Assembly: GCA_027717595.1 (NCBI GenBank)
Contig: JALLOF010000002.1
Span: 29,324 to 93,323 of the forward strand
DNA from: Nitrospinae bacterium AH_259_B05_G02_I21
Lineage (GTDB): Bacteria; JADFOP01
Reading direction: 5' to 3'
Length of the DNA stretch: 64,000 nucleotides
Both the position numbers and the translations under genes were made by a program. The notes beneath the pieces are model-generated. The model was not told the DNA's origin. It searched no databases and saw only the letters and a program-made list of their open reading frames with translations. Shown here one piece after another: positions 43,092 to 59,710 of this stretch (positions within the stretch are counted from its first letter, which is position 1; every line of letters begins with the position of its first letter).

Positions 43092-45560
43092 GTGAGGAGG
43101 ACCGCCTCGTCAATGGCGTACGCCACCAGATATCGCGCCCTCTTTTTCTTCCTGGCGCTGCTCGTCTTGATAGCGCTGCCGTCCCGCCCCGTGGGCGTGG
43201 CCGACGGGCTGCCGGCCGACCACCCCCTCGACCTGTGGATCGTGCTGGTGCTTGTCGGGGGGTTTTTCGTCCTTCCCTGGCGGATCGAGCGGCACCGGGC
43301 CACGCGGCTGGCTCTGGCCCTGCTCGCCGTGGCATTAGGCAAGCTCGCTCTGGCCACCACCAGCCTCCCCCACGGCCTCGTGGCCCGCTACTACGCCAAC
43401 GCCGAGCTCAAGGGACCACCTGAGGCCTCCATAAAGTACCGCCTGGACGGAGCCACACGAATAGACCGCTCCCTCGATTTCGCATCCGTGGGTTTCGCCT
43501 GGGGTGCCACGCCCTTCCCCCTCTGGTTCTTCAACGACTCCCGCCGCTTCAACTTCTACAAGCCAGAGGAGCCCGACCGACGGCACCTGCCCTTCAGCGT
43601 GCGGTGGGACGGCTTCATCAGGGCCCCCACGACGGAGCCCTTCACCTGGAGGCTCCTCGCCGAGCAGGAGGCGAGCTTAAGCCTCCTCGGCCAGCCCATC
43701 GTCTCAACGACCGAGGGCGCACCAGAGGCCGCCGTCGCCCTCACGCCCGGCTGGCATCCCATAAGCGTAACCTACGCATACAGAGGCCAGGGCCCCCGGA
43801 GCCTGAGGCTTGAATGGGAAGGAAACGGCGCCTTTCGTCCCGTCCCTCCTTCAGCCCTGCTTCCCTTCCGTCCCTCGCCCGCCCAAGACCGATGGGACGA
43901 GCTTATCGTGATGCCCGGATGGATTCTCTTTTTCCTCCAGTTTCTAGTGGTAGGCTGGATTTTGTTAGAGGGTTTGTGGGGAGAGCCGAGCGAGAAGTTC
44001 CTTGCCGAGCGGACGGCCGTCTACCTGATGGTTGTAGTGATGGTCGCCGTCGGGACCATCTCGCTCTCTAAGCGGGGCCGGGCGCCGGAGTGGAACTTCT
44101 TAAACGGAGGAGACGACCCCCTCACCTACGAGACGGCAGCCAGACAGATTCTGCTAGAGAAAGACCTTCTAAACCGAATGATACCGAATAAACCCTTTTA
44201 CTTCATGGTGGGTTACCGCTACTTCCTGGCTGGAGCCCATGCCGTACTCGGCGAAAGCAAGGCCATGATCGTCCTGACACACTACATTCTGCTGGCAGTG
44301 GCCTGCGCCCTGCTCTACGGCTTGATTCGTTGCCTGGCTCCTCCCGGACCAGCCTTCTTTGCTTCCGCCCTTCTCTTTGCCGGCCAGGCCCACGGAACAG
44401 TCTACCGCTGGGCTACCGAGCTCTTCCCGACCATACTGGGCCTCGTCCTCATCGGGGCAGTCCTGCTCGGCCTCTCTCGCTGGGAAAAGAAACCCACTCT
44501 CTGGGGCGCAGCGGGAATCGGCGCCCTGGCAGGCCTCGCCACCATTGTGAGACCCAACATCTTGGCTTTCCTTCCCTTCGCCATCCTGTGGATGGTACTG
44601 GCACCACCCCTCCCTAGGGCTAAGCGGTGGCAAGGGGCGGCGGTTGCCCTTCTGGCAATGACCTTAACCATTGCACCGGTGACCTGGCGCAACTGGCATG
44701 TCTCAGGCCGCTTTGTCCTCCTCGTAGAGAGCGGTCCCACCATGCTTCTGCAGGGCAATAGCCCCCCACCCTCTGTGGACCTCTCGAGGGCTGTGACTTC
44801 GAGGAGCCTTAAGATTACATTGCGGCGAAGCCCCATTGGGCGGCCTGAGAAACACGAGAAGGCGCTGAGGGATCTATTCTATGACCCTACGGAGGAGAAG
44901 TTCCACCAGACAGTCATTAGAGAAGATACGCGTGAGATACGGGGGATGGTCAACAAGGTAATCCACATGGTTGATGTGGAGGTGTTAGACCCAGATCCTT
45001 CCTACGAGCAGTGGAACCTAAAACACCAAACCCGAGTTGTCCTGGAGTACCTCCGCCAGCAGCCTTGGGCCTTCCTTAAAGGGCTCGGTTGCAAGCTCCT
45101 CACAACCCTCGGAATCAGAAGCCCTTTCGTTCCCTCCCTCCTCCTGCTACACATAGGCTATATCGTTGGGGCCTTTCTTCTCTGGCGGGCAGATGTTGCT
45201 AGACGGCTGTCTATCCTACTACATAGCTTCGTTCTGTCCCAATGGTCGGTCCTGGTCATTTTAAAGCCCGGACCTCACTTGCCCAAAACCCAGTTGCCCA
45301 CCTTTATTGTGGCCTTTTCCTTTGCCGCCCTTCTTATCGTCTCGTGGATGTACGCCGCCGTCGAAGGCCACCCTCCACCAGGGTTCCTGCCACGAGGCCA
45401 GAGGTGGGGCCCCATTACACGCTTCCTCGGCGGAGCGGCAGCCCTGGGGTTGCTGGCAGCGATTACCTACCCACCACGCCTGCCTTTTCTTATCCCCTTG
45501 CTATTCGGGGTCATCTGGATGCTTCGCCGGAATCAACGCCCCCAGCTTCTTTCTCCATGA
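43092..45560 (+). CDS. PA14-like domain / GT-C fold membrane glycosyltransferase fusion protein (paralog 1 of 3)
   Basis: N-terminal TM helices; then the PA14-like pattern GLVARYYAN...FSVRWDGFIRAPTTEPFTWRL...SLSLLGQPIV...HPISVTYAY...LRLEW; then ~13 TM with the loop motif NGGDDPLTYETAARQ and a large second periplasmic loop. The ATG at 43113 (MAYATRYR), preceded by GAGGAGG, is the likelier start. Confidence 0.6.
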   Translation: MRRTASSMAYATRYRALFFFLALLVLIALPSRPVGVADGLPADHPLDLWIVLVLVGGFFVLPWRIERHRATRLALALLAVALGKLALATTSLPHGLVARYYANAELKGPPEASIKYRLDGATRIDRSLDFASVGFAWGATPFPLWFFNDSRRFNFYKPEEPDRRHLPFSVRWDGFIRAPTTEPFTWRLLAEQEASLSLLGQPIVSTTEGAPEAAVALTPGWHPISVTYAYRGQGPRSLRLEWEGNGAFRPVPPSALLPFRPSPAQDRWDELIVMPGWILFFLQFLVVGWILLEGLWGEPSEKFLAERTAVYLMVVVMVAVGTISLSKRGRAPEWNFLNGGDDPLTYETAARQILLEKDLLNRMIPNKPFYFMVGYRYFLAGAHAVLGESKAMIVLTHYILLAVACALLYGLIRCLAPPGPAFFASALLFAGQAHGTVYRWATELFPTILGLVLIGAVLLGLSRWEKKPTLWGAAGIGALAGLATIVRPNILAFLPFAILWMVLAPPLPRAKRWQGAAVALLAMTLTIAPVTWRNWHVSGRFVLLVESGPTMLLQGNSPPPSVDLSRAVTSRSLKITLRRSPIGRPEKHEKALRDLFYDPTEEKFHQTVIREDTREIRGMVNKVIHMVDVEVLDPDPSYEQWNLKHQTRVVLEYLRQQPWAFLKGLGCKLLTTLGIRSPFVPSLLLLHIGYIVGAFLLWRADVARRLSILLHSFVLSQWSVLVILKPGPHLPKTQLPTFIVAFSFAALLIVSWMYAAVEGHPPPGFLPRGQRWGPITRFLGGAAALGLLAAITYPPRLPFLIPLLFGVIWMLRRNQRPQLLSP

Positions 45561-45700: not shown

Positions 45701-45992
45701 CGCCTCAGGGCCTGGCGAGACCTCAGCCCTCGCAAGAGCCTTGAGATTAATTCGTCGACCCGCCATGATCGATTCGGCCAAGAGACACCCGAGGCCCACA
45801 AAAACGATGGTCGTGAAGGTAGTGGCGTGGAGTGCAAAGGCTGCCGAGAGGGCCTGGGCACGGGGCAATCCATAAAGGAGAAACCCGCCCATGGCAGCGG
45901 CGTGGAAGGTCCCGACGAATCCGGGTGCCGAGGGCAGGGCGACCCCAAGGACTAGCAAGATCTGAAGGACGATGGCCGCCGAGAGCGGGAGG
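45701..45992. repeat. ~290-bp imperfect direct repeat: displaced copy of the 3' end of the flippase-like gene 51093..52145 (partner repeat 51099..51390)
   Basis: DNA identity of roughly 90% by eye over ~290 bp. The fragment translates to ...APGFVGTFHAAAMGG.LLYGLPRAQALSAAFALHAT.FTTIVFVGLGCLLAES..GRR..LKALARAEVSPGPEA, matching the C-terminus of the intact gene. Confidence 0.6.
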
Positions 45993-46172
45993 TGGCCTGA
46001 GATGCAACCATGGGTCGCTCCGAAAAATCAACTAAGAATGGCATTGACCCAGGCTTTAAGAAAGTAACGTTTAAGACAAGAAAGGCTTGGGGCCTTAGTC
46101 GCAAGGCAGGTTTCTCAGAACCGAAGGGTTATCTCATCCAAAATGCCCCTTATGAGCTAAGTCGCAGATCTA

Positions 46173-46487
46173 TTATGATTTCACTTTTGGAAATCTACTA
46201 AGTAACGATTTTGCAAAGCTCAGGCTCCCTGAGGCACCTTCCGTTGCTTCCAGCTTTATCAATCTTCGCTCTACTTGCTCGTGACAAGCCCAGCATAGCG
46301 TGATTAGGTTATCGATGTGGTCGGACCCGCCTTGGGATCGCTTAACTAGGTGATGGACGGTCAAGTTCCTCGGGCTTCGGCAGTAGGGATTCCGACACCG
46401 CCAGCGGTCACGTTGAAAGACTTTGGTCCGCAACCGTGCGAAGGCCTCCTTCTTTAGCCGCACTCGTCTCTTCTTCCACAGGCTCAT
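46173..46487 (-). CDS. HNH endonuclease
   Basis: CRNPYCRSPRNLTVHHLVKRSQGGSDHIDNLITLCWACH (HNH motif with flanking Cys pairs), 104 aa. Confidence 0.75.
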   Translation of the reverse strand: MSLWKKRRVRLKKEAFARLRTKVFQRDRWRCRNPYCRSPRNLTVHHLVKRSQGGSDHIDNLITLCWACHEQVERRLIKLEATEGASGSLSFAKSLLSRFPKVKS

Positions 46488-47016
46488 AGGTTGCTAAGAA
46501 CTCCGCCGCGATCATCTCGGCCTGATAGCCTCGACTCTCCGAGCCCGTCATCAGGCCAGCTAACTCAAGGGCCCTCTCAAACACCTCCCGTTGGGCCTGA
46601 TAGAAATAGACGGTGAAGGGCTTGGCCGCCTCTTCGTCCTTATTGCCTCGAATTAGCGTCTGAAGCTCCTGGGTAGTGAGCTGCTCGGCCCTGGCTAGCC
46701 ATACCGTCAAGTCCTCAGGTGTGGCTACCCTTACCACTTCCTTCATCTTGGTCCATCCGATTCGGCGCAGTTTCTTGGGGGGAATATTGAGTTCATTAAC
46801 CTTCTCCCAGATGGCTATCAGGTAAAAGGCCTTGCGGACACCGAACTCCAGGGTCTCTTGAAGGTAATCCTCAAAATGATCGTAACCGAGTTTTAGGTAA
46901 TGCTGGTGGTGGAAGATTTCTCTAAGCAGGCCCCCTAGCTCGTAGTAACACTCATCCAGCCGGGCCTTGAGCCGTACAATCCTATGGTGGATCTTCAAAT
47001 GCTCTGTTCGGGCCAC
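46408..47016 (-). CDS. hypothetical phage-associated protein
   Basis: 202 aa ORF co-oriented with the HNH and nuclease genes; no assignable motif. Confidence 0.4.
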   Translation of the reverse strand: MARTEHLKIHHRIVRLKARLDECYYELGGLLREIFHHQHYLKLGYDHFEDYLQETLEFGVRKAFYLIAIWEKVNELNIPPKKLRRIGWTKMKEVVRVATPEDLTVWLARAEQLTTQELQTLIRGNKDEEAAKPFTVYFYQAQREVFERALELAGLMTGSESRGYQAEMIAAEFLATYEPVEEETSAAKEGGLRTVADQSLST

Positions 47017-47055
47017 TGCAATTAATTGCAGCCGAGGCGCTGGTGAGTGAAGGAA

Positions 47056-47958
47056 CTATTCAAGATCAGGCTCCTGTCCGTTTTGCAACCTCTCCAGGGT
47101 CCGCTTGAGCTTTCCGTATATCGTCTGGGCCCTGGCTTTGCGAGTGATTTGAGCCTTCCGTCGGATGCCCGGAACGGCGGTACCGTCTTTCTTGGTGTAG
47201 CCACTGTGGGCCTCCAGGATCTCCCCGATGGCCTCGCCGGTGAGAAGCTGGATGGCCGCGAGGAGTTCATCAATCATTTTCCGGTACTCCCGAAGCCCGT
47301 AGCCCTTGGGCTCCCTGTCTTCCTTCTCAGGCTGGCCGTCTTTGGCTTGCCTATCCCCCTCCTCCTGACTCCTGTAACGGTCGATCCACTGTTTTAGGAG
47401 CGCCTGGGGCAAGAGCTGACGAATGGCATTTCGCTGGGCCTTACTGACAGCCTTGACATCAGCAAAGGAATCAATCTGGAGCTGCCCCGAGGGCAGACGC
47501 CGCATAAGCGCCTGGCGAGACCGCCCGACCCGAACACTTCCGGTCTTGATGTCCTTGGCCTCGACCGTCACCACGACATGGGTCTCCGTCTCCTGCTCCT
47601 CTAAAATCCGGCACTGAATGCCCCCGTACGCTCGGCTTGCCTCCTGGATGCCGATCCAGCTTAGCCCCACGATAGGACGACCACCGGAGTTCATCTCGTA
47701 GACGAACTCGTCAAGGTACATCCCTTCTAGTGTAGCCACAATCTGGGCCTCGTCCCGCTGGTCCATGAGCTGGTAGACATCTTGGGGTTCTTCTTCAGCG
47801 CTCTCTTTAGTCTTTGGCGGCTCTTCTTCTTTGACAGCGGTGATTTCTGGTACAGAAATGCCTTCCATGGGACTTTCGGTGTTTTTCATCGTTTCTCCCT
47901 CCCTTATAATCCACCATCCATGACTAAGATCTAACGACTCCTCCAAAGTCCTTCTCAC
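47056..47958 (-). CDS. hypothetical phage-associated protein (possible single-strand annealing/recombination protein; speculative)
   Basis: 300 aa with acidic N- and C-terminal regions (start probably MKNTESP at ~47889). It sits immediately downstream of the Cas4-like exonuclease, as in phage exo/SSAP pairs. No motif-level support. Confidence 0.35.
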   Translation of the reverse strand: MRRTLEESLDLSHGWWIIREGETMKNTESPMEGISVPEITAVKEEEPPKTKESAEEEPQDVYQLMDQRDEAQIVATLEGMYLDEFVYEMNSGGRPIVGLSWIGIQEASRAYGGIQCRILEEQETETHVVVTVEAKDIKTGSVRVGRSRQALMRRLPSGQLQIDSFADVKAVSKAQRNAIRQLLPQALLKQWIDRYRSQEEGDRQAKDGQPEKEDREPKGYGLREYRKMIDELLAAIQLLTGEAIGEILEAHSGYTKKDGTAVPGIRRKAQITRKARAQTIYGKLKRTLERLQNGQEPDLE

Positions 47959-48748
47959 ACTCCTCCCAGTAGCCGCAATGGCGGCGGGTGCAAAGATAGT
48001 TCTGGCGGTTGGGGGTAAAGATCAGGGCCTCAATCTGTCTCGCCACCAAGCCAATGAGGTTCTTATAGTAGGCCAGGTGCGAGGATGTGACTCGGAATGG
48101 GATCTGGACAAGCTTGGTGTTCTTGGTACGGACAAGATAATCCACGACACATCCCTCTTCGGCTCGTTCCTGGGTTGCCCGGTAGGCTAGGGCATAAGCC
48201 ACCATCTGGTCTTGATGTGCTGGGGCCAAAGCAGGGGCATTCTCCACCTTGGCCGGGCTCCGCTTGACCACCTTTGTGTCCCGAATGATGCTACCTCGCT
48301 CGACCACGTCGGGTACGACAACAAAACGATAGGCGAAGTTGGGCATATCTAGCTCCACTCTCTTCTGAACGGCTGTGGGCTGAACCGTAGGAGCCACATC
48401 ACCTTGGTAGAGGGATAGGACCCGGGCCCCGTCGTCTTTCACTTGACTAGGTTTCTCCTCGGGCCCCCAAAGGGTTTCACTCTTTCGGGCCTCGAAGTCG
48501 GTGGAGAAGGCATCGAGAACTTCGTCCAGGGCCAGATCTTGATGACTCTCGATCTTTTGCCGGTAGTTGTGGGTAATGCCGGAATCGACAGCGCTGCCCA
48601 ATGTGGCCGCACCCGAGGGGGGCCTCTTGAGCCCACGGACATATCGGTAGTACCACTGGGCCGGACAGCGCAGGAACATGTTGACCTGCGTTGGGCTTAG
48701 ATGGGGCTTGGATTCAGTGTTTCGGTTCGATAGTTTATTGTTTTTCAT
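47924..48748 (-). CDS. PD-(D/E)xK nuclease with C-terminal Cys cluster (Cas4-like / phage exonuclease family)
   Basis: D...E.K-type core (VVVPDVVERGSIIRDTKV); N-terminal Cys (RCPAQWYY) and C-terminal cluster YLCTRRHCGYWEEC, typical of Cas4/RecB-family Fe-S nucleases. Confidence 0.6.
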   Translation of the reverse strand: MKNNKLSNRNTESKPHLSPTQVNMFLRCPAQWYYRYVRGLKRPPSGAATLGSAVDSGITHNYRQKIESHQDLALDEVLDAFSTDFEARKSETLWGPEEKPSQVKDDGARVLSLYQGDVAPTVQPTAVQKRVELDMPNFAYRFVVVPDVVERGSIIRDTKVVKRSPAKVENAPALAPAHQDQMVAYALAYRATQERAEEGCVVDYLVRTKNTKLVQIPFRVTSSHLAYYKNLIGLVARQIEALIFTPNRQNYLCTRRHCGYWEECEKDFGGVVRS

Positions 48749-48831
48749 GATTTAAAACCTCTATTTCCTCTATCAGCGGGCACGAAATCTCGGGCCCCAA
48801 GGGAGTTTCTTGTAGGCGAATCCTCCCAATT

Positions 48832-49302
48832 ATGGTATTTTGCGAAGCTGAATGGATTATCGTTAGAATAGCCTATTCTGTTTATATTGTCAAGTCCAAT
48901 ATGGAGCTTCCGATGATGAAAAATCTACCACAAAATTTGGGCCAAAGGATCCGTCAATTTCGCGCAGAAAGAGGGCTCTCGCAGTCGAAGATGGCTCGAC
49001 GAATAGACGTCGCAGTCCAGCAGTATAATCGATATGAGCTAGGAAAAACAAAGATTCCTATCGATATCCTCGTGAGAGTAGCTGATATACTAGAGATAAG
49101 CACGGACGTCTTGTTGGGTCGCCAAGAGGCACGGAAAGATGGGGGGCTTTTGGAGGAGAACGTCTTCTATGATTTAGTTGAAAAAATCAAATCTTATCGT
49201 CTCGTAGACTACAAGAAGGAAGAGCGAGAAATTTTGAGAAGTGCAGCCAAGATGCTGGCGGACCGTCTAGAGGAGAAAAAGAAAAAGCGGAAGAAAAACT
49301 GA
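48832..49302 (+). CDS. XRE-family helix-turn-helix transcriptional regulator
   Basis: LGQRIRQFRAERGLSQSKMARRIDVAVQQYNRYELGKTKIPIDILVRVADILEIS is a canonical HTH_XRE; lysine-rich C-terminus. Confidence 0.7.
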   Translation: MVFCEAEWIIVRIAYSVYIVKSNMELPMMKNLPQNLGQRIRQFRAERGLSQSKMARRIDVAVQQYNRYELGKTKIPIDILVRVADILEISTDVLLGRQEARKDGGLLEENVFYDLVEKIKSYRLVDYKKEEREILRSAAKMLADRLEEKKKKRKKN

Positions 49303-49606
49303 TGATGTTGAGGGGATACCCAAGTTGATCATCGAGCGAGTGGAACAGCGGAAAACCCGTCCTCGGAGGAGGAGATAGAAGAGCACTTACACAAGAACCA
49401 TAGAATTTGATCAGGATCGGCGGAGGAATGGTTGCCGGCCGAGCTCTTCTAGAGCAAGGAGTCCCGAGAGAGGGCGAAAGTGAATTGTTGTAAAAGTACC
49501 GAAGCCTCGCGCCTCAAGTAGTGTTATGGAGAGAAATGTCTGAAGGACCTATCGCGCTACCTGGTACATTGATGTCTTACGGCACTAGCTATTAGCTTCA
49601 GGGTAG

Positions 49607-50278
49607 CTAGGCCCTGTTCAAAGATATATTCAACCCAATTTCCTCTATCAAATCCAACGCCTCGTCAGAGAGGTCAGATAGGTCAATTTTTGGCTTCTGT
49701 TGGCTATGAATAGGGCCGCCGTCTAGATCTTCAAGTTTGTCCAACACTTGGAAAAGTTTAGGAACGGCATTCGCGGGGATTTCGCCACTCATCAGCCTCT
49801 CAAGGATCTCAAGGGCGATTTTGCCCTTCTGATTGGTGGAAACCTCAAGGGCAGAGTCTGCAAGGGTAAAGGGCAAAGGCGCTTGGGATCCATACGCGTT
49901 AGTGGCCTTGAGGATTTCCACACAAGCCCGGAGGCGAATCTGTTCGCTGGAGGACCGGGCGAGATCTTTCAAGCCCTGAATAGCCTCGGGGACCAGACTT
50001 CGCAGCTGTCCCACGGCGGCTTGGAACTGCGATCGTTTGGCCCGTTCCAACTCCTCCTGAAAGGCGGGGATTTTGAGCCACTCATGCAGGGTGGAGCGGC
50101 TGACGCCGGCGTTCTTGCTCGCGGCTTCGATGGTGGGGCTCTCAAGAAGAGAAACAATTGCCCGCTGTTGGCGCGGAGTCAGTTTTCCATTGCTGCTCAT
50201 CGGTCTAACTCCTTTCAAAATGGTTGGGTTTATATGGTCTTTCCCTATTCCCCTGCTCCCACAGAACAACAGAGTCAC
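49607..50278 (-). CDS. HTH DNA-binding protein (phage regulatory / terminase-small-subunit-like, uncertain)
   Basis: LTPRQQRAIVSLLESPTIEAASKNAGVSRSTLHEWLK resembles an HTH module; the start is probably MSSNGKL (~50200). Confidence 0.45.
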   Translation of the reverse strand: MTLLFCGSRGIGKDHINPTILKGVRPMSSNGKLTPRQQRAIVSLLESPTIEAASKNAGVSRSTLHEWLKIPAFQEELERAKRSQFQAAVGQLRSLVPEAIQGLKDLARSSSEQIRLRACVEILKATNAYGSQAPLPFTLADSALEVSTNQKGKIALEILERLMSGEIPANAVPKLFQVLDKLEDLDGGPIHSQQKPKIDLSDLSDEALDLIEEIGLNISLNRA

Positions 50279-50508
50279 TCCCTCTTTGCAAGGGTAAAAT
50301 TGAAAAGGGAAGCGTAGGCATATAAGAGATGTTGGATTAGCTTACAAGTCCAGTAAAATAAGCCCCTTGCAGTCCCTACTAGGTGGCTTCTAGTGCCCTC
50401 ATGAGGGAATTGGACAAGGAGAACCTTCCAGCGGGAAATCAGACTCCCATAACATATTGATTATATGGTCATCATGGCGCTATTGTGCCATTGTATAGCT
50501 CTAAAAAG

Positions 50509-50533
50509 TGTCCGAAAATGTCCGATTTTGTCC
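50509..50533. repeat. three TGTCC motifs at exact 10-bp spacing (TGTCCGAAAA TGTCCGATTT TGTCC) in the non-coding part of the element
   Basis: Read directly: TGTCC at 50509, 50519 and 50529. Helical-turn periodicity suggests a protein-binding array (iteron/operator-like). Confidence 0.3.
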
Positions 50534-51092
50534 AGGACTAGCAATGGACGATACAGGTGGGAATAGCTGTACAAAATCAAGGGGATACCCAATATCTTCT
50601 TGATTGGAGAACAAATTCACTAGATTAATCCCCAGCATTCAAATGAGGAGAGGAACCATGATACTATCTAGCGGAGAAAGGTATCTGACGGACGGCTTTG
50701 TTGTGCAGAAGGAGTTAACGGCTATGCGGCTCTATCCGCCCATCGTCAACATGCTGTTCGGAGGCAGGCTTCAATACATGGCTGTACTTAGCGTAGAAGG
50801 GGCTTAATGCGCTCGGGTCCCCGCAAGGCTTCGATGCACGCCGACGATCCTTAGTGCCTCTTGCCTCTAGTCGTTTTAGCAAGGCTCTGTGAAAAACGGT
50901 TTAACAGGTATGCCCTCCTCCACAAACGTGTAAAACGCATAGCCCCGGGGGCCCAGCCATCGCCTCCAGGCCGATTGCTCCCCGCCCCACTCGATCATGA
51001 CAAGCCCAACACAATGTTAGGAAACTCTCCCTCTGATCCTCTCCCTCTGAGAGCGCCCCCCTAGGAGAGCTTCACTAAAGGAAAGGAAACGG

Positions 51093-52145
51093 TCAATTCG
51101 CCTCAGGGCCCGGCGAAACCTCAGCCCTCGCAAGAGCCTTGAGCCTAAGGCGTCGGCCAATCACCACCGACTCGGCCAAGAGACACCCGAGGCCCACAAA
51201 AACGATGGTCGTGAAGATAGTGGCGTGGAGTGCAAAGGCTGCGGAGAGGGCCTGGGCACGGGGTAATCCATAAAGGAGAAGCCCGCCCATGGCAGCGGCG
51301 TGGAAGGTCCCGACGAATCCAGGTGCCGAGGGCAGGACGACCCCAAGGACTATCAGGACCTGTAGGGTGATGACAGCCGAGGGCGGGAGGGTCATGTCAA
51401 AAGCCTTGAACAAGCAGAGGTTGGTAGCCAAAAAAATCCCCCAGATGGCCAGGGTCAAGGCGATGAAGGGTGGCAGGTCTCTACCAGTAGGTACACCCCG
51501 CAAGCCACCTACGAAAGCCTCCCCCCACCCAACCATTTTATCCACCCATGGGGTGGGAAGAAAGGTGAAGGCCCGGCGTAGGAAAGCCAGGGCACGTTCT
51601 GGGCTCCGAGCCAGCCCCCACAGGACCAGCCCACATACCACGGTGACGAGACCAAAGAGCCCCGCACCGATTTGTAGGGAAGCCTTCAAGGCGGGACCTG
51701 TCAGGGACGGCACAAACCATCCAAGAGCCAAGATCATCAGCGGCAGAAAAGAAAGGGCGTCAACAAGCCGCTCCATCACTATAGTGGCGAAGACGCTGCT
51801 AACCGGAACGTGGCCTCCCTCCCCTGCCACGACGGCCCGCACCACCTCGCCCGCCCGGACTGGAAGTAGCATATTGCCAAGGAACCCAATCCCCGTTGCT
51901 CGGATGCAAAGGCCAAGGCTCAAAGGATGAACCGGCTTTAAAAGATAGGTCCACCGCCAGGCGCGAAGGCCAATGACGGCTGCACTTAGGAGCGCTATTA
52001 GCCCAACCCACTCCAGTTTTACTTGAGCGAAGGCTAGGCGGACCTCGTGCCATCCAACCCCTCGAAGGACCCAGCCCAGCAGAAGGAGGCTCACTGCAAA
52101 TCCAGCAATGATGTAACTTCGCTTCACTCGCTGCCTCTCGACCAA
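51093..52145 (-). CDS. flippase-like / lysylphosphatidylglycerol-synthase-TM-region family membrane protein (UPF0104-like)
   Basis: 350 aa, ~8 TM; N-terminus RSYIIAGFAVSLLLLGWVLRGVGWHEV...LLSAAVIGLRAWRWTYLL is typical of this family, which is often partnered with GT2 enzymes. Its 3' ~290 bp is one of the direct repeats. Confidence 0.6.
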   Translation of the reverse strand: MVERQRVKRSYIIAGFAVSLLLLGWVLRGVGWHEVRLAFAQVKLEWVGLIALLSAAVIGLRAWRWTYLLKPVHPLSLGLCIRATGIGFLGNMLLPVRAGEVVRAVVAGEGGHVPVSSVFATIVMERLVDALSFLPLMILALGWFVPSLTGPALKASLQIGAGLFGLVTVVCGLVLWGLARSPERALAFLRRAFTFLPTPWVDKMVGWGEAFVGGLRGVPTGRDLPPFIALTLAIWGIFLATNLCLFKAFDMTLPPSAVITLQVLIVLGVVLPSAPGFVGTFHAAAMGGLLLYGLPRAQALSAAFALHATIFTTIVFVGLGCLLAESVVIGRRLRLKALARAEVSPGPEAN

Positions 52146-52428
52146 TCAAAGACCTCATATTGTACTGAACGAACTCCGTCAAGACAACGGTCCGACCACC
52201 GGGGGACGATCACCGCTGCACCTCTCCAAGCGACGGCCAGCGGGCGGGGCACTTCACAATTCCATATACTCTGCCTCAAGTGCCCCCGCATGGTTGCATC
52301 CGCCGCTTCAAGTGATACCATGGAAGCTAACTGTCCCCTCCCCGGGGACCCTGTTCGCACAAGCCCCCCCTTTTGGAAGCACGGGGCGGTGGCCTGAACA
52401 CGCCTCCTACACGTGCCGAGGGAGGACA

Positions 52429-53463
52429 ATGAGCCAGGAGACCCTGCTAGTCGTCGGCGGCGCCGGGTACATCGGCTCGCACTGTACGACTCTTTTGTTG
52501 GAGCACGGCTATAACGCCTTGGTCCTCGACGACCTCTCCACGGGCCACCGGGAGGCGGTCCCTGAGGAGGCTTCCCTCATAATCGGGGACCTCGGCGACG
52601 CCGCTCTACTGAACAACATATTTGAGCGGCACGATATTTCGGCTGTTTTCCACTTCGCCGCGCTCGCCATCGTCTCCGAATCGCCCCGCCAGCCATTGAC
52701 CTACTACGAAAACAACGTCGCCAAGACCGCCGTCTTGCTCCAGGCCATGGCGAGCCACGAGGTTCCTTGCTTCATCTTCTCCTCAACGGCGGCGGTCTAC
52801 GGAGAGCCGAGCGCCGACGTGCTGACCGAGGATCATCCGACTAGTCCGGTCAATCCGTACGGCCGCTCCAAGTTGATGGTTGAGGCGATGCTGTCCGACG
52901 CCGCCGAAGCCCTGGCGCTTCGCTACGCTTCGCTGCGCTATTTCAATGCCGCCGGCACCGACCCTTCAGGGCGGTGGGGTGAAGACCACCGCCCGGAGAC
53001 TCATCTCATCCCCCGAATCTTGTTGGGTACGCTGGCCCACCAAGGTGTGGCCATCCACCCGGCGGCCGATGTCCCGCCCTGGATCGAGGTCTACGGCACG
53101 GACTACGACACACCCGACGGGACATGCGTCCGCGACTTCATTCACGTCACCGACCTCGCCGAGGCCCACCTCCTGGCCCTCCGCCACCTCCGGCAGGAGG
53201 GGGAGAGCCTGGTCTGCAACCTGGGCTCTGAGACGGGCTTTTCCGTTCGCCAGGTCATCGAGGCGGCCGCCCGTGTGACGGGGACATCCCTGCCCGTCCA
53301 GGAAAAGCCACGACGTCCCAACGAGCCCTCCCGGCTGGTCGCCAGCGCGGCGTTCTCTCGTCGCCTCCTGGGGTGGAATCCCCGCTTCAGCGACCTGGAG
53401 ACCATCATTCAAACGTCATGGGAGTGGCACAAAGCACACCCCCGAGGGTACGCCCAGTCATAG
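52429..53463 (+). CDS. galE: UDP-glucose 4-epimerase
   Basis: LLVVGGAGYIGSH; SSTAAVYGEP; NPYGRSKLMVE (YxxxK); FNAAGTDPSGRWGED; VRDFIHVTDLAEAHL; C-terminal WEWHKAHPRGY. Clearly GalE-like. ATG at 52429 with a GGGAGGA SD. Confidence 0.85.
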   Translation: MSQETLLVVGGAGYIGSHCTTLLLEHGYNALVLDDLSTGHREAVPEEASLIIGDLGDAALLNNIFERHDISAVFHFAALAIVSESPRQPLTYYENNVAKTAVLLQAMASHEVPCFIFSSTAAVYGEPSADVLTEDHPTSPVNPYGRSKLMVEAMLSDAAEALALRYASLRYFNAAGTDPSGRWGEDHRPETHLIPRILLGTLAHQGVAIHPAADVPPWIEVYGTDYDTPDGTCVRDFIHVTDLAEAHLLALRHLRQEGESLVCNLGSETGFSVRQVIEAAARVTGTSLPVQEKPRRPNEPSRLVASAAFSRRLLGWNPRFSDLETIIQTSWEWHKAHPRGYAQS

Positions 53464-53586
53464 AGCCGCATAGAGAAGAACCGCAAGAGGCTCGGTACGC
53501 CCAAAGACGGTTGAGCATGTGAAGGGAGAGCGGGCTTGTGGGGTTAGGCGCCTTCCGCCCACGCCTGAACGGCTCGCACAACCCGG

Positions 53587-54654
53587 TCAACTTCCTCTTC
53601 CGTGAGCTCCGGGAACATGGGAAGGCTCAACACCTCGCGGGCTGCCCGATCGCTTTCCGGGAAGGCCCTTTCCATGTAGCCCCCCCCCTGCAAAAGCCTC
53701 CTGGGCCGGGAGCGACACGGGATAGTGTATTGCCGCTCCGATGCCCTGGTCGGCCAGATGGCGCTTCAGGTCGTCGCGTCGGGCCGCCCCGATGGTGTAC
53801 TGATGGTATACGTGATGGGACCCCGGGGCCTCCGTCGGGCACACCACGCCTGAGACCTTCTCGAGGCCAGCCGTGTAGGCTGCGGCGTGGCGACGGCGAG
53901 CATCGTTCCACCCCTCCAGGTGAGGGAGCTTGACCCGAAGGACGGCGGCCTGGAGAGTGTCCAGGCGGCTATTGTATCCCACCACCCTGTGCAGATAGCG
54001 CTCGGACGCCCCGTGAACGCGAAGCTGGCGGACCAGCTCGGCCAGGGCCGCATCGTCCGTGACCACCATCCCCCCGTCGCCGTAGGCCCCGAGGTTCTTC
54101 GTCGGAAAGAAGCTGAAACAACCGACATCCCCCAAAGATCCGACGACGCGCCCCTGGGAGCGGGCACCGAAGGCCTGTGCGGCATCCTCGATGACGGCCA
54201 AGCCGTGTCGAGCCGCCAGCGCGCTAATCGCCTCCATGGGGGCAGGATGGCCGAACAGGTGGACGGGAATAATGGCTTTGGTCCTCGAGGTGACGGCCGC
54301 TGCCGCCGCACCGGGGTCTAGGGCGTAAGCCTGCGGGTCAACATCCACAAAGACGGGCATGGCGCCACAGTAGATGACAACCTCCGCCGTTGCGATGAAA
54401 GTGAAGGCGGGCACGAGGACTTCATCGCCCGGACCGACGCCGAGAGCCAGCAGGGCCAAGTGGAGGGCGTCCGTGCCTGAGGCCACCCCGACGGCGTGGC
54501 TGGCTCCGCAAAAGGCGGCGACCTCCTCCTCCAGGGCCTCTACCTCGCGGCCCAAGACGAACTGGCCGCTCTCGATGACCCGTCGGATGGCTTCATCCAT
54601 CGCCTCGCGCAAGAAGGCGTATTGGCGCGTCAGGTCGAAAACCGGGATGGACAT
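53587..54654 (-). CDS. DegT/DnrJ/EryC1/StrS-family PLP-dependent sugar aminotransferase; 3' end frameshifted at a G9 homopolymer
   Basis: MSIPVFDL...SGQFVLGREVEALE...GTDALHLAL...FSFFPTKNLGAYGDGG...HYPVSLPAQEAF. After the G9 tract (53680..53688) the frame gives a non-homologous tail. The alternative frame encodes the conserved ...GYMERAFPESDRAAREVLSLPMFPELTEEEVDRVVRAVQAWAEGA* ending at 53544. Confidence 0.8.
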   Translation of the reverse strand: MSIPVFDLTRQYAFLREAMDEAIRRVIESGQFVLGREVEALEEEVAAFCGASHAVGVASGTDALHLALLALGVGPGDEVLVPAFTFIATAEVVIYCGAMPVFVDVDPQAYALDPGAAAAAVTSRTKAIIPVHLFGHPAPMEAISALAARHGLAVIEDAAQAFGARSQGRVVGSLGDVGCFSFFPTKNLGAYGDGGMVVTDDAALAELVRQLRVHGASERYLHRVVGYNSRLDTLQAAVLRVKLPHLEGWNDARRRHAAAYTAGLEKVSGVVCPTEAPGSHHVYHQYTIGAARRDDLKRHLADQGIGAAIHYPVSLPAQEAFAGGGLHGKGLPGKRSGSPRGVEPSHVPGAHGRGS

Positions 54655-54894
54655 CGCTTCCTCGGTGAGGGATGGCAAGGGGCCGTAAGGCCAGCGGCCA
54701 TTAAACCACCCCGGCCGGACACGGCGCAAGAGGGATGTGGAGGGGCACCAACTTCTTTCCAGCCATTTCCATCTGACTCGGACCATGGATGACGAACCGA
54801 TCGCTCCTCCTCGCGCCTTTCATCGTTGACTCCCACCGCGAAGCCGCTACAATTGCCTCGGCTGCACCTGGCTTAGAGGGATAACGGAGCTCCC

Positions 54895-57363
54895 GTGCCC
54901 ACGACGTCCGCCACCAGATACCGGGTCGTCTTTTTTCTCCTGGCGCTGCTCGTCCTGATAGCGCTGCCGTCCCGCCCCGTGGGCGTGGCCGATGGCTTGC
55001 CTGCCGACCACCCCCTCGACCTGTGGCTTGTGCTGGTGCTGGTCGGGGGATTTTTCGTCCTTCCCTGGCGGATCGAGCGGCACCGGGCCCCGCGGCTGGC
55101 CCTGGCCTTGCTCGCCGTGGCTATCGTCAAGCTCGCTCTGGCCACCACCAGCCTCCCCCACGGCCTGGCGGCCCGCTACTTCGCCAACGCCGCCTTCGAG
55201 GGGCCCCCCGAGGCCTCCCTCGAGTACCGCCTGCCCGGGGCCACCCGCCTCGACTCCACCATCGCCTTCGCCCCCGTGGGCTTCGCCTGGGGCGAAAAAC
55301 CTTTCCCCCTTTGGTTCTTCAACGACTCCCGCCGATTTAATTTCTACAAGCCCGGGGAGCCCAACCGCCGACGTCTGCCCTTCAGCGTGCGCTGGGACGG
55401 CTTCATAAGAGCCCCTTCTGCCGAGCCCCTTACCTGGAGGCTTGAGACCGACCAAGAGGCAACTCTAAGCCTCCTTGGCCAACCCATCGTCTCAACGACC
55501 GAGGGCCCGCCCGAGGCCTCAGTTACCCTCAGCCCAGGCTGGCACCCCATTAGCGTAACCTACGCATACAAAGGCCAGGGTGCGCGGAACCTGGAGCTCG
55601 AGTGGGAACGAAACGGCTCTTTTCGGCCCGTCCCTCCATCAGCCCTGATGCCCTTCCGGCCCTCGCCTCTTCAAGAGCGGTGGGACCAGCTGGTGGTTAC
55701 GCCCGGCTGGGTGCTCTTCGTCCTGCAATTTCTCGTCGTGGGATGGATCTTGTTGGAGGGTTTGTGGGGAGAGTCGAAGGAGCGGTTCCTAACTGAGCAG
55801 GCGGCCGTCTACTTGATGGTGGTAGTGCTGGTGGGTTTCGGGACCGTCTCGCTCGCCAAGCGGGGCCGATCATCGGATTGGAACTTCCTAAACGGAGGAG
55901 ACGACCCTCTTACCTACGAAACAGCCGCCAGGCAAATACTCATAGAACGAGATCCGCTAAACAGAATGATACCGAACAAGCCCTTTTACTATATGGTGGG
56001 TTACCGTTACTTCCTGGCTGGAACCCATGCTTTACTCGGCGAGAGCAAGGCGATGGTCGTCCTGACACACTACATTCTGCTGGCAGTGGCCTGCGCCCTG
56101 CTTTACTACCTGATACGAATCCTGGCTCCTCCCGGGCCGGCCTTATTTGCAGCCGCCCTTCTCTTTTCTGGTCAGGCTCATGGAACAGTCTACCGGTGGG
56201 CCACCGAGCTCTTCCCAACCATGCTAGGCCTCGCCCTAACCGGGGCAATGCTCCTAGCGCTGGCCCACTGGGAGCGGCAACCCACTCTCTGGGGTGCAGC
56301 AGGAAGCGGTGTCCTAGCGGGCCTAGCAACCATTGTACGGCCCAACTTCCTCGTGTTCCTCCCCTTCGCCATCCTGTGGATGGGGATAGCATTACCCCAT
56401 CCAAGGGCCAAACGGTGGCAAGGGGCGGCGGTTGCCCTTCTGGCAATGACCTTCACCATTGCACCGGTGACCTGGCGAAACTGGCACGTTTCGGAACGCT
56501 TCGTGCTCCTCGTTAATAGCGGCCCCACCATGCTACTGCAGGGAAACAATCCTCCGCCAACGGTGGACCTCTCGAGGACTGTGACATCGAGGAGTCTCAA
56601 GATTTCGCTACGCCAAAGCCCATCCGGGGAGCTTAAGAAACACACAAAGGTGCTGAGGGATCTATTCAATGACCCCTTGGCGGAGAAGACTCAAACGGGG
56701 GCCATTCGAAGAGATACGCTCGAGATTCAGGGGATGGTCAACAAGGTTATCCACTTAGTTGACGTGGAGGTAATAGACCCATATCCTTTATATCAGCAGT
56801 GGAACTTGGCCCCCCAAACCCGAGAGGTCCTGGAGTACCTCCGCCAGCAACCAGGAAATTTCATCAAGGGACTTGGCCGCAAGGCTCTCCAAACACTGGG
56901 ATTCGCCTATCCGTTCGCCCCAGCCCTTCTGCTGCTCCACCTCGCCTATCTCCTAGGAGCCGTTCTACTTTGGCGGGCCGGAGTGGCTCGACGCCTGGCC
57001 ATTCTGCTCCATGCCTTCGTTCTGTCGCAATGGTTGGTTCTCGTCATCGTGAAGCCCGGACCCCACTTGCCCAAAACCCAACTGCCAACGTTCTTCGTCG
57101 CCTTCGGGTTCGCAGCCCTCCTGATCGTCTCATGGACGGCCGCCGCCATCGAAGGCCGCCCCCCACCGAGCATAGTGCCAAGACGAAAGAAGTGGTCCCC
57201 ACGTGCGCGCATCCTCGGCGGGGCGGCAGCGATGGGGCTCCTTGGCGCGCTCACCTACCTTCCGCGCCTGCCTCTGCTCATCGCATTGCTCGCCGGAGCG
57301 GTCTGGAGCCTGCGGCACACACCACACCACACGGCTCTCGGCGCTTCAGCCTCCCCACCGTAA
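54895..57363 (+). CDS. PA14-like domain / GT-C fold membrane glycosyltransferase fusion protein (paralog 2 of 3)
   Basis: Same architecture as 43092..45560 (GLAARYFAN...FSVRWDGFIRAPSAEPLTWRL...; NGGDDPLTYETAARQ; multi-TM). GTG start at 54895 with a GGAG SD 5 nt upstream. Confidence 0.6.
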   Translation: MPTTSATRYRVVFFLLALLVLIALPSRPVGVADGLPADHPLDLWLVLVLVGGFFVLPWRIERHRAPRLALALLAVAIVKLALATTSLPHGLAARYFANAAFEGPPEASLEYRLPGATRLDSTIAFAPVGFAWGEKPFPLWFFNDSRRFNFYKPGEPNRRRLPFSVRWDGFIRAPSAEPLTWRLETDQEATLSLLGQPIVSTTEGPPEASVTLSPGWHPISVTYAYKGQGARNLELEWERNGSFRPVPPSALMPFRPSPLQERWDQLVVTPGWVLFVLQFLVVGWILLEGLWGESKERFLTEQAAVYLMVVVLVGFGTVSLAKRGRSSDWNFLNGGDDPLTYETAARQILIERDPLNRMIPNKPFYYMVGYRYFLAGTHALLGESKAMVVLTHYILLAVACALLYYLIRILAPPGPALFAAALLFSGQAHGTVYRWATELFPTMLGLALTGAMLLALAHWERQPTLWGAAGSGVLAGLATIVRPNFLVFLPFAILWMGIALPHPRAKRWQGAAVALLAMTFTIAPVTWRNWHVSERFVLLVNSGPTMLLQGNNPPPTVDLSRTVTSRSLKISLRQSPSGELKKHTKVLRDLFNDPLAEKTQTGAIRRDTLEIQGMVNKVIHLVDVEVIDPYPLYQQWNLAPQTREVLEYLRQQPGNFIKGLGRKALQTLGFAYPFAPALLLLHLAYLLGAVLLWRAGVARRLAILLHAFVLSQWLVLVIVKPGPHLPKTQLPTFFVAFGFAALLIVSWTAAAIEGRPPPSIVPRRKKWSPRARILGGAAAMGLLGALTYLPRLPLLIALLAGAVWSLRHTPHHTALGASASPP

Positions 57364-57457
57364 GGATTCTTCGGACCATCCGTCGCAAAGCAAGAGCGAA
57401 TGGGCCTGCGCCTCAACGATTTCGGACGTCTCGCCTGATATGCTATCCTTGTGGCCC

Positions 57458-59710
57458 ATGGCCCCCGCCACGCGATACCGGGTTGTCTTTTTTCTCCTGG
57501 CGCTGCTCGTTTTGATTGCGCTGCCGGCTCGTCCGGTGGGCGTGGCCGACGGGCTGCCGGCCGACCATCCCCTCGACCTCTGGATCGTGCTGGTGCTGGT
57601 CGGGGGGTTTTTCGTCCTTCCCTGGCGGATCGAGCGGCACCGGGCCCCGCGGCTGGCCCTGGCCCTGCTCGCCGTGGCTATCGTCCAGCTCGCCGTCGCC
57701 ACCACCAGCCTCCCCCACGGGCTGGCGGCCCGCTACTACGCCAACGCCGACTTCCAAGGCTCCCCCGAGGCCTCCATCGAGTACCGCCTGGCCGGGGCCA
57801 CCCGCATCGACCCCACCATTGCCTTCGCCCCCGTGGGCTTCGCCTGGGACGCCAAGCCCTTCCCCCTCTGGTTCTTCAACGATTCCCGCCGCTACAACTT
57901 CTACCGGCCCGATGAGCCCGACCGCCGCCACCTCCCCTTCAGCGTGCGGTGGGACGGCTTCATCCGCGCCCCCTCGAGCGAGCCTCTAGCCTGGCGGCTG
58001 GTGACCGAGCAGGAGGCGACCCTCGAGCTGTTCGGCCAACCCATCGCCTCGACCAGAGACGGGCCCTCCAAGGTCACGATCGCCCTCTCCCCCGGCTGGC
58101 ACCCCATCAGCCTCACCTACGTCTACCGGGGAGCCGGCCCCAAGAGCTTGCGCCTCGAATGGAACGACAACGGTCCCTTCCACCCCGTTCCTTCCTCGGC
58201 GCTGATGCCCTACCACACCTCCCCGCAGGCGGACCGGTGGGACGGGGCGACGGCTGGGGCGGCGCAGGTGCTCTTTGTCCTGCAATTTCTCGCCGTTGTG
58301 TGGGTCATGGCCTCGGGGCTGTGGGGTGAATCGAAGAAGCGGTTCCTGACAGAGCGGACGGCGGTCTACGCTCTGGTTGTCGTCATGGTCGCCTTCGGAA
58401 CCCTCTCGCTCGGAAAGCGAGGACGCTCGCCCCACTTGAACGTCTTAAACGGCGGCGACGACCCCCTCGTCTACGAGACCGCCGCAAGACAAATCCTGCT
58501 CGATCGAGACCCTCTCAACCGGATGCCCTCGACCCAGCCCTTTTACTTCACTGCCGGCTACCGTTACGTGCTCGCTACGGCCCACGCCCTCATGGGCCCC
58601 TCAAAGGCCATGGTCGTCCTGCTCCAGTATTGCTTCCTCGCCATCGCCTGCGCCCTGCTCTACTACCTAGCCAGGCGGCTCGCCCCGCCGGGTGTGGCGC
58701 TGCTCGCAGCGGCCCTTCTCTTCGCCGGCCAGGGGCGCGGAGCCCTCTACCGCTGGCCGACCGACCTCTTCCCCGCCGTTGCGGGCATTCTCATCGTAGC
58801 AGCCCTTCTCTTACAACTGACCGCCTGTTGGGAGCGGCCCTCCTGGCAGCGGGCGGCGGGAGCAGGCGTCCTCTTTGGCCTGGCCTGCATGGTCCGCTCG
58901 AATATCCTCGCCTTCGGCCCCATCGCCTTCCTCTGGCTCGCCTTGAGCCGAGCCCTCCCTCCGCGCCGGGCCGCCGCCACCGCCTGTGCCTTCGCCATCG
59001 CCGGGGCGCTCACCATCGCCCCCACGACGCTGCGCAACTGGCACGTCTCCGGGGAGTTCGTGCTCCTGAACAAGGGGGGAAGCATCAACTTCTGGCAGGG
59101 CAACCAACCCCCCGGGGACCTTGACCTCTCCCGGGTCGGAAAGTCCCCGCTCTATAGGCGCCTGGGCTTCGGGCACCGAACTCAGGAGGTCTTGGAATAC
59201 GCGCGCCAACGACCGGTGGCGTTCCTTGGAGGGCTGGGCAGCAAAGCGCTCCTCCTCATGGGCCTGCCGCCGCACTTCTCACTCAGCCTCCTCGCCCTGC
59301 ACATAAGCTATCTCATCGGAGCAAGCCTCCATTGGCGCTGGGGGCGAGACCGATGGCTGGCGGTGCTCCTCCACGGCTTTGTCGCCAGCCAATGGGCGCT
59401 CTTGATTCTCCTGAAGCCTTGGCCCCACGAGCCAAAAAACCAGCTCCCCACCTTCCTCGTCGCATTCGCCTTCGCAGCCCTGTTCCTCGCGTCGATGGCC
59501 GTCTACGCACTCGGGGGCCGGTCCCCACTGTCCCGTCCAGGGATGGCGACGACCCCCTCACCCATTCCCAGGCTCGCCTCCGGGGTCGCAGCGGCAGCAT
59601 TCCTTGCCGCCATTACCTACACCCCCCGCCTCCCTCTGCTCATCCCCTTGCTCATTTGGGTCGCCTGGAGGCTTCGGCGAGCCCCAAGCCCCCTTGCTCT
59701 TTCCCCTTGA
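57458..59710 (+). CDS. PA14-like domain / GT-C fold membrane glycosyltransferase fusion protein (paralog 3 of 3, shorter second periplasmic loop)
   Basis: MAPATRYRVVFFLLALL... aligns with the other two N-termini. PA14-like block GLAARYYANADFQGSPEASIEYRL...FSVRWDGFIRAPSSEPLAWRL; NGGDDPLVYETAARQ. The listed ORF start at 57203 is an out-of-context upstream extension overlapping paralog 2. Confidence 0.6.
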   Translation: MAPATRYRVVFFLLALLVLIALPARPVGVADGLPADHPLDLWIVLVLVGGFFVLPWRIERHRAPRLALALLAVAIVQLAVATTSLPHGLAARYYANADFQGSPEASIEYRLAGATRIDPTIAFAPVGFAWDAKPFPLWFFNDSRRYNFYRPDEPDRRHLPFSVRWDGFIRAPSSEPLAWRLVTEQEATLELFGQPIASTRDGPSKVTIALSPGWHPISLTYVYRGAGPKSLRLEWNDNGPFHPVPSSALMPYHTSPQADRWDGATAGAAQVLFVLQFLAVVWVMASGLWGESKKRFLTERTAVYALVVVMVAFGTLSLGKRGRSPHLNVLNGGDDPLVYETAARQILLDRDPLNRMPSTQPFYFTAGYRYVLATAHALMGPSKAMVVLLQYCFLAIACALLYYLARRLAPPGVALLAAALLFAGQGRGALYRWPTDLFPAVAGILIVAALLLQLTACWERPSWQRAAGAGVLFGLACMVRSNILAFGPIAFLWLALSRALPPRRAAATACAFAIAGALTIAPTTLRNWHVSGEFVLLNKGGSINFWQGNQPPGDLDLSRVGKSPLYRRLGFGHRTQEVLEYARQRPVAFLGGLGSKALLLMGLPPHFSLSLLALHISYLIGASLHWRWGRDRWLAVLLHGFVASQWALLILLKPWPHEPKNQLPTFLVAFAFAALFLASMAVYALGGRSPLSRPGMATTPSPIPRLASGVAAAAFLAAITYTPRLPLLIPLLIWVAWRLRRAPSPLALSP

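Follow-up and report, generated by a model that had tools for sequence, protein, structure and literature searches.

A ribosomal protein L30-derived insert in PA14-containing GT-C-type glycosyltransferase paralogs of a Nitrospinae bacterium

Introduction

Membrane glycosyltransferases of the GT-C fold that carry periplasmic carbohydrate-binding modules are established; such modules are MIR in the protein O-mannosyltransferases (PMTs) and those of the Emb and AftD enzymes. We analyzed a DNA stretch of 64,000 nucleotides from Nitrospinae bacterium AH_259_B05_G02_I21 (contig JALLOF010000002.1, positions 29,324 to 93,323 of the forward strand; hereafter, the window). It encodes three paralogous proteins, P1, P2, and P3. 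They are best explained as GT-C glycosyltransferases that face the periplasm and belong to a PA14-containing family, widespread though still uncharacterised. Two of them, P1 and P2, additionally harbor an insert of 65 aa that almost certainly originated from rpmD, the gene of ribosomal protein uL30 (L30).

The Pmt1/2/4 enzymes (GT39) resemble the window proteins in having a lectin-like module on the luminal or periplasmic side of the membrane. In the GT-C/PMT clan, the loop between core helices TM7 and TM8 is luminal and catalytically important; in the Pmt1/2 entry 6P25, it holds an inserted stretch, residues 312-531 (PMC7801869). The MIR domain of Pmt is located in this loop (PMC7801869), the same one that holds L30 in P1 and P2. 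However, the sugar-binding module of P1-P3 is PA14 and not a beta-trefoil, its position is ahead of the core, on the N-terminal side, and not within the TM7-TM8 loop, and what fills that loop in P1 and P2 has a ribosomal-protein fold. As for GT39, "glycosyltransferase family 39 protein" is the label given in NCBI records.

ArnT (GT83), acting in the ArnB/ArnC/ArnT pathway of lipid A aminoarabinose, shares with P1-P3 the acidic residues in the first periplasmic loop and with P2 and P3 a match to the PMT_2 family (P1 scores just below its threshold); JGI labels distant relatives of P1-P3 "ArnT-like". A DegT-type aminotransferase and a family 2 glycosyltransferase (GT2) similar to ArnC are encoded nearby in the window. 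On the other hand, P1-P3 possess four extra N-terminal transmembrane (TM) helices and PA14 and are devoid of the C-terminal periplasmic domain, and a profile of their family gave no ArnT match by sequence in the PDB at E values up to 1. The GT2 of the window (234 aa) scores 65 bits with ArnC against an equivalog cut-off of 529, and a formyltransferase/decarboxylase of the ArnA type was not seen.

The mycobacterial EmbA/B/C and AftD also combine a GT-C core with periplasmic carbohydrate-binding domains, but these are of another type and C-terminal, and both the phylum and the envelope differ. PpgS, which has a GT-C partner, is resembled by the GT2 of the window. PA14 domains are known from RsgI anti-sigma sensors, the adhesin MpIBP, Flo/Epa adhesins, and anthrax protective antigen; the profile of the window family matches such domains, whereas in P1-P3 the domain sits inside a membrane enzyme, with TM helices on either side, and scores low with PF07691.

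Organization of the Three Paralogs

P1 (43092..45560, plus strand; 822 aa) comprises three N-terminal TM helices, the PA14 domain, 13 further TM helices including the GT-C core, and the L30 insert. P2 (54895..57363, plus strand; 822 aa) has the same architecture, whereas P3 (57458..59710, plus strand; 750 aa) combines PA14 and GT-C without the insert. P1 and P2 share 77% identity, and either of them shares 63-64% with P3, which they exceed by 72 aa, the L30 insert accounting for 65 of these. A preceding sequence-only reading of the window had located all three open reading frames (ORFs) correctly, including the start of P3, and had described them as proteins of about 820 aa with one shared architecture. 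This length holds for P1 and P2 but not for P3, and the architecture is not shared, as P1 and P2 carry a captured L30 domain and P3 does not.

Another possible start of P1 is the ATG at 43113. The start of P3 at 57458 (MAPATRYR) is the one found in all homologs, while the program-listed ORF opens at 57203; the upstream extension 57203..57457 (85 codons, overlapping the end of P2) is backed by no homolog and was rejected as a mere product of the ORF listing. Records identical to P2 (MDA2915406.1) and P3 (MDA2915407.1) exist for Nitrospinae bacterium AH_259_B05_G02_I21, and partial proteins of Nitrospinae bacterium AH-259-F20 are identical to them as well (MDA2932678.1 in the case of P2). A 101-aa fragment identical to the C-terminus of P1 exists among the records.

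Identity and Origin of the L30 Insert

The insert is located in frame in the loop after core TM7: at 44790..44984 (plus strand; residues 567-631) in P1 and at 56578..56772 (plus strand; residues 562-626) in P2, where it is more diverged. Residues 573-630 of P1 matched two L30 models over the full model length: PF00327 with 42.1 bits (gathering score of 23) and TIGR01308 with 49.8 bits (cut-off of 44.65). The P2 insert was below both cut-offs (12.2 and 25.7 bits, respectively; TIGR01308 E value of 6.5e-6). In the family alignment, the 65 residues 567-631 were present in P1 and P2 only and were absent from P3 and nine other close homologs.

A search with the insert against 5.8 billion proteins matched only genuine L30 proteins of 60-77 aa, the best matches being Nitrospinota L30 (62 aa) with 75-77% identity over 97-98% of the length and an E value of 5.5e-20. 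In the PDB, uL30 chains were matched by sequence with an E value of 1.4e-10. The insert was also modelled with AlphaFold2 (AF2) separately from full-length P1; this model (mean predicted local distance difference test, pLDDT, of 79) matched uL30 chains, including 1bxy, with TM-scores of 0.74-0.81. In family models, identity, and fold, the insert is therefore alike to uL30. It differs from it in being part of an 822-aa membrane protein rather than a free gene product of ~60 aa flanked by rpsE and rplO, in lying outside the S5-L30-L15 operon, in its predicted position outside the cytoplasm, in the replacement of the GLGL motif by an acidic expansion, and in its lower net charge. The real L30 of the lineage (MDA2916182.1) is encoded in a normal S5-L30-L15-SecY operon, so the insert is an extra copy.

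Both junctions lie at ORF boundaries. The copied piece extends from a few bases before the L30 start to the C-terminal VEV(I/L)D, with the stop codon left out. The position of Met1 of L30 is occupied by Val (GTG) in the insert, and the preceding 3-5 nt resemble the rpsE-rpmD spacer. The 3' junction falls within the dipeptide ID, which ends L30 proteins of the P0036 type (VEVID-stop) and is present at the same site in insert-less relatives (DLSR-IDTDPLY); since it is common to both, a join through microhomology would fit. The hints at the donor are split: the 5 nt upstream (GGGCT) are similar to the spacer of the own lineage, while the first codons, TSRS, are similar to ASRQ of the P0036-type protein and not to the own SEKR. 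The complete rpmD ORF would have entered the loop between core TM7 and TM8, in frame, in the gene from which P1 and P2 both descend.

A third copy of the insert was found in P0108 (286 aa), encoded at 2349..3209 of the Logan contig L009 (SRR29093009) and matching residues 542-822 of P1. P0108 is a C-terminal remnant starting inside the contig, with unrelated genes, including a methyltransferase gene, upstream; it is either a truncated pseudogene or a product of rearrangement. It resembles P2 in the insert and P1 at the C-terminus.

No L30 match was detected in any of 67 other diverse family members. When 1.84 billion representatives of 50%-identity clusters were searched exhaustively with phmmer, the best-scoring stretches ended at query positions ~560-567, just ahead of the insert. 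Searching JGI metagenomes with a degenerate DNA pattern for the rewritten loop of the insert revealed no further insert-bearing gene, and a protein-based scan of JGI metagenomes recovered only genuine rpmD genes (e.g., L013, in S5-L30-L15 context). We found nothing in the literature on captured L30 domains or on PF00327 in such a role.

PA14 Domain, GT-C Core, and Membrane Topology

The PA14 domains were assigned to 43365..43877 in P1 (residues 92-262, predicted periplasmic), 55153..55665 in P2 (residues 87-257, aligned to the P1 domain), and 57710..58222 in P3 (residues 85-255, from the family alignment), all on the plus strand. Those of P1 and P2 share 78% identity with a ratio of nonsynonymous to synonymous substitution rates (dN/dS) of 0.20. 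Single sequences stay below the PF07691 cut-off (gathering score of 24 bits; P1 alone, 11.4 bits and an E value of 0.28). However, a profile built from 21 members of the family matched PA14 structures in the PDB over profile positions 92-251: 6qdi (E value of 1.5e-14), 6qe7 (RsgI3; 8.5e-13), and anthrax protective antigen (1.8e-6). The AF2 model of P1 contains a beta-rich block at residues 96-250 with a PA14 beta-sandwich/barrel fold, and PF07691 was directly matched by 15 of 68 distant relatives (best E value of 1.4e-12). The PA14 assignment, already proposed from the motif pattern, is sound on these three grounds, and the domain is a divergent subfamily.

With the PMT_2 model (PF13231; gathering score of 26.1 bits), P3 scored 33.4, P2 27.1, and P1 24.3 bits, and 45 of the 68 relatives matched it at E values of up to 1e-3. 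P1-P3 belong to the multi-spanning GT-C class of membrane folds. The AF2 model of P1, built from 31 homologs, had a mean pLDDT of 84.5 and a predicted TM-score of 0.86. It places PA14 between an N-terminal bundle of three helices (residues 2-28, 45-60, and 67-90) and an extra TM helix (263-295) preceding a core of 12 TM helices. Core TM1 (306-328) is followed by the putative catalytic loop, which bears GGDD; then come TM2-TM7 (390-413, 418-430, 446-466, 470-486, 488-502, and 509-538), a long loop (539-680) between the 8th and 9th of the 13 helices, and TM8-TM12 (681-699, 704-724, 731-758, 774-791, and 794-813). The N-terminal helices, PA14-like block, and about 13 TM helices anticipated by the sequence-only reading are all present in the model, and the PMT_2 scores of P2 and P3 also speak for the expected GT-C membrane core, that of P1 being just under the gathering score. 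The second large loop envisaged for all three proteins does exist (539-680), but it is not alike in them: the L30 insert makes up about half of it in P1 and P2. Overall, we regard the domain assignments as highly reliable, and the core of the sequence-only interpretation withstands the conditions that had been set for its refutation.

The GGDD motif (44106..44117, plus strand; residues 339-342 of P1), in the first periplasmic loop of the core, is a candidate catalytic acidic pair. It comes after helix 306-328, where a GT-C enzyme should have its first extracytoplasmic loop, and G339, G340, D341, and D342 are all conserved among close homologs. Among the 68 relatives, which have 21-31% identity to P1, residues D342, R487, G387, G95, and P658 are invariant and G340, H383, R533, and N534 nearly so. 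An acidic loop motif of the GT-C type had been predicted, and this conservation upholds it.

In the AF2 model, the GGDD loop and the insert-bearing loop are six TM helices apart. Short connectors rich in K and R (RIERHR at ~64-69, RWEKK at ~465-469, PRAKR at ~510-514, and WRADVARR at ~699-706) alternate as the positive-inside rule requires. By helix count and this alternation, PA14, the GGDD loop, and loop 539-680 are all predicted to be periplasmic, which agrees with the periplasmic PA14 on a GT-C fold that the sequence-only reading had put forward for checking; such a placement is probable in the modelled topology.

Selection on the Insert and Its Possible Role

All three copies of the insert (in P1, P2, and P0108) are open, with no frameshift or stop codon. 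Their dN/dS was 0.35 for P1 versus P2 and 0.27 and 0.30 for the other pairs, with Fisher p values against neutrality of 0.0018, 0.00015, and 0.009, respectively. Synonymous divergence was ~0.65 between P1 and P2 and ~1.0 between the insert and rpmD; outside the insert, the P1/P2 dN/dS was 0.15-0.27. All 14 genuine L30 proteins compared have the GLGL motif, but all three inserts have lost it: GLGL-KK was replaced by DLF(Y/N)DPxxEK, which is 4 aa longer (DLFYDP in P1 and DLFNDP in P2), and P0108 reads FFNDPLAEK at this site. Genuine L30 proteins have a net charge of +7/+8; that of the insert is +2 in P1, +3 in P2, and +6 in P0108.

The insert has kept the L30 fold, lost GLGL and most of its positive charge, and since then evolved under purifying selection. 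Since the fold was kept while motif and charge were lost under such selection, we infer a retained structural or ligand-contacting loop module and not a ribosomal protein. This role of a retained, re-purposed module is tentative, its probability being at or just short of an even balance. Its fuller form, in which the captured L30 was exported, had its rRNA-binding motif erased and its charge neutralised, and became a working part of the substrate-facing TM7-TM8 loop, is a tentative proposal somewhat short of that balance. The L30 module would be, e.g., an acceptor-contacting lid working with the PA14 lectin domain.

The main alternative is that L30 is a neutral passenger: an accidental in-frame insertion in a permissive surface loop, tolerated as a small self-folding domain. 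We consider this possible but rather doubtful. It agrees with the occurrence of the insert only in P1, P2, and one truncated relative, with P3 and more than 100 family representatives managing without it, and with the drift of the P2 and P0108 copies under the L30 family cut-offs. The insert dN/dS of 0.35 is about twice the value of 0.15 for the GT-C core, which a passenger constrained only to fold would match, and the rewritten loop (residues 597-612) was modelled at low confidence (pLDDT below 50 in the full-length model). The last two points weigh against a working L30 module in a GT-C enzyme, as do several others: P0108 is 5'-truncated, the PMT_2 score of P1 is slightly too low for the gathering threshold, P1, P2, and P3 all miss that of PF07691, the best NCBIfam similarities of the neighboring GT2 (AglJ, Dol-P-hexose transferase, PpgS, and ArnC) are all under the equivalog cut-offs, and exact look-ups of P1 (with either start) returned no record. 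An exact look-up of P0092 also gave none. Against a passenger stand the dN/dS values significantly below 1 in all three pairwise comparisons, a reading frame intact after the synonymous divergence from the paralog and from rpmD, and a derived loop replacement and charge loss common to the copies. In these data, constraint on folding alone would leave the same traces as constraint on function.

Another explanation concerns the whole protein. PIG-U/GAB1 are non-catalytic GT-C folds, and by this parallel P1-P3 could be not transferases but PA14-based envelope sensors or anchors on a retained GT-C-like scaffold. This is improbable, as 68 diverse relatives show no or almost no variation at D342, R487, R533, N534, and H383 and a GT2 of the donor-synthase type is kept as a neighbor.

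It is still less probable that the L30 module is cytoplasmic, binds RNA or the ribosome as before, and couples the enzyme to translation. The module does descend from an rRNA-binding protein and has kept its fold, but helix count and the positive-inside rule place its loop on the side of GGDD and PA14, solved GT-C enzymes have the homologous TM7-TM8 loop on the luminal side (PMC7801869), GLGL is destroyed, and the net charge is down by 5-6 units in P1 and P2.

An artefact of assembly, i.e., a chimera or mis-join of rpmD reads in a glycosyltransferase gene, is scarcely credible: although the source genomes are single-cell or metagenome assemblies and P1 has no exact match among the records, the insert occurs in two paralogs of one contig that differ there by 32%, in a second assembly (MDA2932678.1, equal to P2), and in the unrelated Logan contig, has a derived expansion of 12 nt, and is only 76% identical in DNA to the rpmD of the lineage, when a chimera would be nearly identical, so that a chimeric origin is effectively refuted. 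Convergence was also rejected as an explanation of the insert.

Distribution of the PA14-GT-C Family

The exhaustive phmmer search gave 1940 matches at E values of up to 1e-3; this number fell to 356 at a limit of 1e-10 and to 84 at 1e-30. Of the 150 matches listed, more than 100 align without a break from query position ~20 to ~565, a span that takes in PA14, the GT-C core, and the TM helices of the N-terminus; these relatives are 640-760 aa long. Named sources of the family include Nitrospinota, Tectimicrobiota, Chloroflexota, and Polyangia (Myxococcota), and the names of its members in databases include "ArnT-like glycosyltransferase" and "GT39 family protein". In a collection of species-representative genomes without the source lineage, only two distant loci were detected, in Chloroflexota and Polyangia.

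The combination of PF07691 and PF13231 is already recorded in the precomputed annotation of some database proteins. In full-text searches, no paper joining the terms "PA14 domain" and "GT-C" was found, and a looser PA14/ArnT/PMT_2 query was swamped by the name of a Pseudomonas strain; no characterised member of the PA14-GT-C family was found either. The suggestion that no family with PA14 in a GT-C transferase has been described met with no contrary description in these searches, but the fusion itself is common (more than 100 clusters), and databases already tag PA14 and PMT_2 together. The fusion is real, widespread, and partly visible in existing annotation. Because GT-C enzymes with other carbohydrate-binding modules are established, it is not new in concept, and its novelty is moderate.

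At locus L012 (373..5949), from another lineage, the gene of a PA14-PMT_2 protein, P0013, has two more PMT/PMT_2 GT-C genes in tandem behind it, so that arrays of GT-C paralogs are a recurrent feature near members of this family.

Recombination among the Paralogs

The first ~170 codons of the three genes (43092..43600, 54895..55400, and 57458..57960), which cover the N-terminal TM helices and reach halfway into PA14, share 85-95% DNA identity. Third-position identity reaches 92% there versus 40-60% further downstream, and the synonymous divergence between P1 and P2 is 0.25 versus ~0.65 elsewhere. This looks like gene conversion among the 5' ends of P1-P3.

The closest insert-less relative, P0002 (1681..3933 of the syntenic locus L010), is a mosaic: its middle part is similar to P1 and P2 (74% identity to P1), while its C-terminal tail (LLIPLLIWVAWRLRRSP...LSP) matches P3. 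This suggests recombination among the paralog lineages.

Genomic Context and Proposed Pathway

Directly downstream of P3, a GT2 of 234 aa is encoded (59789..60493, plus strand; PF00535, E value of 3e-36), a candidate polyprenyl-phosphate-sugar synthase. The sequence-only reading had pointed to a donor synthase at this place, and by its best similarities, all of them under the equivalog cut-offs, the gene is of that type. A sugar aminotransferase of the DegT/PseC/ArnB type (53587..54786, minus strand; PF01041, E value of 1e-116) is located upstream of P2 and is syntenic in L010. A UDP-hexose 4-epimerase of the GalE type (52294..53463, plus strand) scored 395.8 bits with TIGR01179 against a cut-off of 262.3. 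A candidate flippase of the LPG_synthase_TM/TIGR00374 family (51093..52145, minus strand) was matched by PF03706 (E value of 7e-46) and by TIGR00374 (52 bits against 43.2); in L009, a flippase-like gene directly adjoins the P1-like gene. Two genes of SDR-family NDP-sugar dehydratases/epimerases (40486..41568 and 41953..43089, plus strand) precede P1, the second ending 3 nt before it. The latter matches the Epimerase model in two pieces, residues ~5-137 and ~175-360, which indicates an insertion of ~40 aa in the middle of its Rossmann fold.

The gene order in L010 is DegT, a single GT-C gene (P0002, 750 aa, no insert), GT2, ParA-like, and DnaJ/HTH. The window has P2 and P3 at the position of that single gene, and the GT2 directly follows the lone GT-C gene of L010 as well. 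The neighboring GT2, kept in L010, is a candidate source of a polyprenyl-phosphate-linked donor for the GT-C paralogs.

From these genes, the following scheme may be drawn. The SDR dehydratases/epimerases and the DegT aminotransferase would produce a modified, probably amino, NDP-sugar in the cytoplasm. The GT2 would put this sugar on polyprenyl phosphate, and the TIGR00374 flippase-like protein would carry the lipid-linked sugar across the membrane. There, the GT-C paralogs would pass it, via the conserved GGDD loop, to an envelope glycan or glycoconjugate, with PA14 helping to hold or select the acceptor. As the sequence-only reading suggested, PA14 may also measure the acceptor glycan, and the three paralogs may have diversified in acceptor or linkage specificity. 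Gene content supports this scheme without proving it, and we consider the scheme somewhat probable.

Upstream, the minus strand carries a large region for polysaccharide biosynthesis (27056..39874). It encodes two Bac_transf proteins, an asparagine-synthase-like (AsnB-like) amidotransferase, a GT4, a polysaccharide deacetylase, two radical-SAM proteins (one of them B12-binding), and a TPR protein resembling PrsT of PEP-CTERM systems. Between P1 and the flippase-like gene, there is a block of ~5.1 kb (45992..51089) with a lower G+C content of 0.51-0.54, which is absent from L009. It contains a Cas4-like PD-(D/E)XK nuclease (47924..48748, minus strand), a helix-turn-helix protein resembling regulators of defence systems (48832..49302), and several ORFs without a family match; the block may be a mobile or defence-related insertion.

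Conclusions

The PA14-GT-C family, with hundreds of metagenome clusters and only 15 of 68 members seen as PA14 by Pfam, offers a well-delimited system in which to ask how a lectin domain within the same protein steers a transferase of lipid-linked sugars. What is unusual is the capture of L30. Both donor and recipient can be identified, the junctions coincide with ORF boundaries, insert-less sisters can serve as controls (P3 in the window and P0002 at the syntenic locus), and the path of change across the copies is clear: loss of the motif, loss of charge, and continued constraint. For these reasons, the capture constitutes a natural experiment in domain insertion and exaptation with ready controls. 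With L30 added to MIR and DUF1736, the TM7-TM8 loop of GT-C enzymes appears as a place where accessory domains have been accommodated repeatedly. If the proposed role is true, the insert would be a dated, near-intact natural case of a core translation protein recruited to an extracytoplasmic enzyme.

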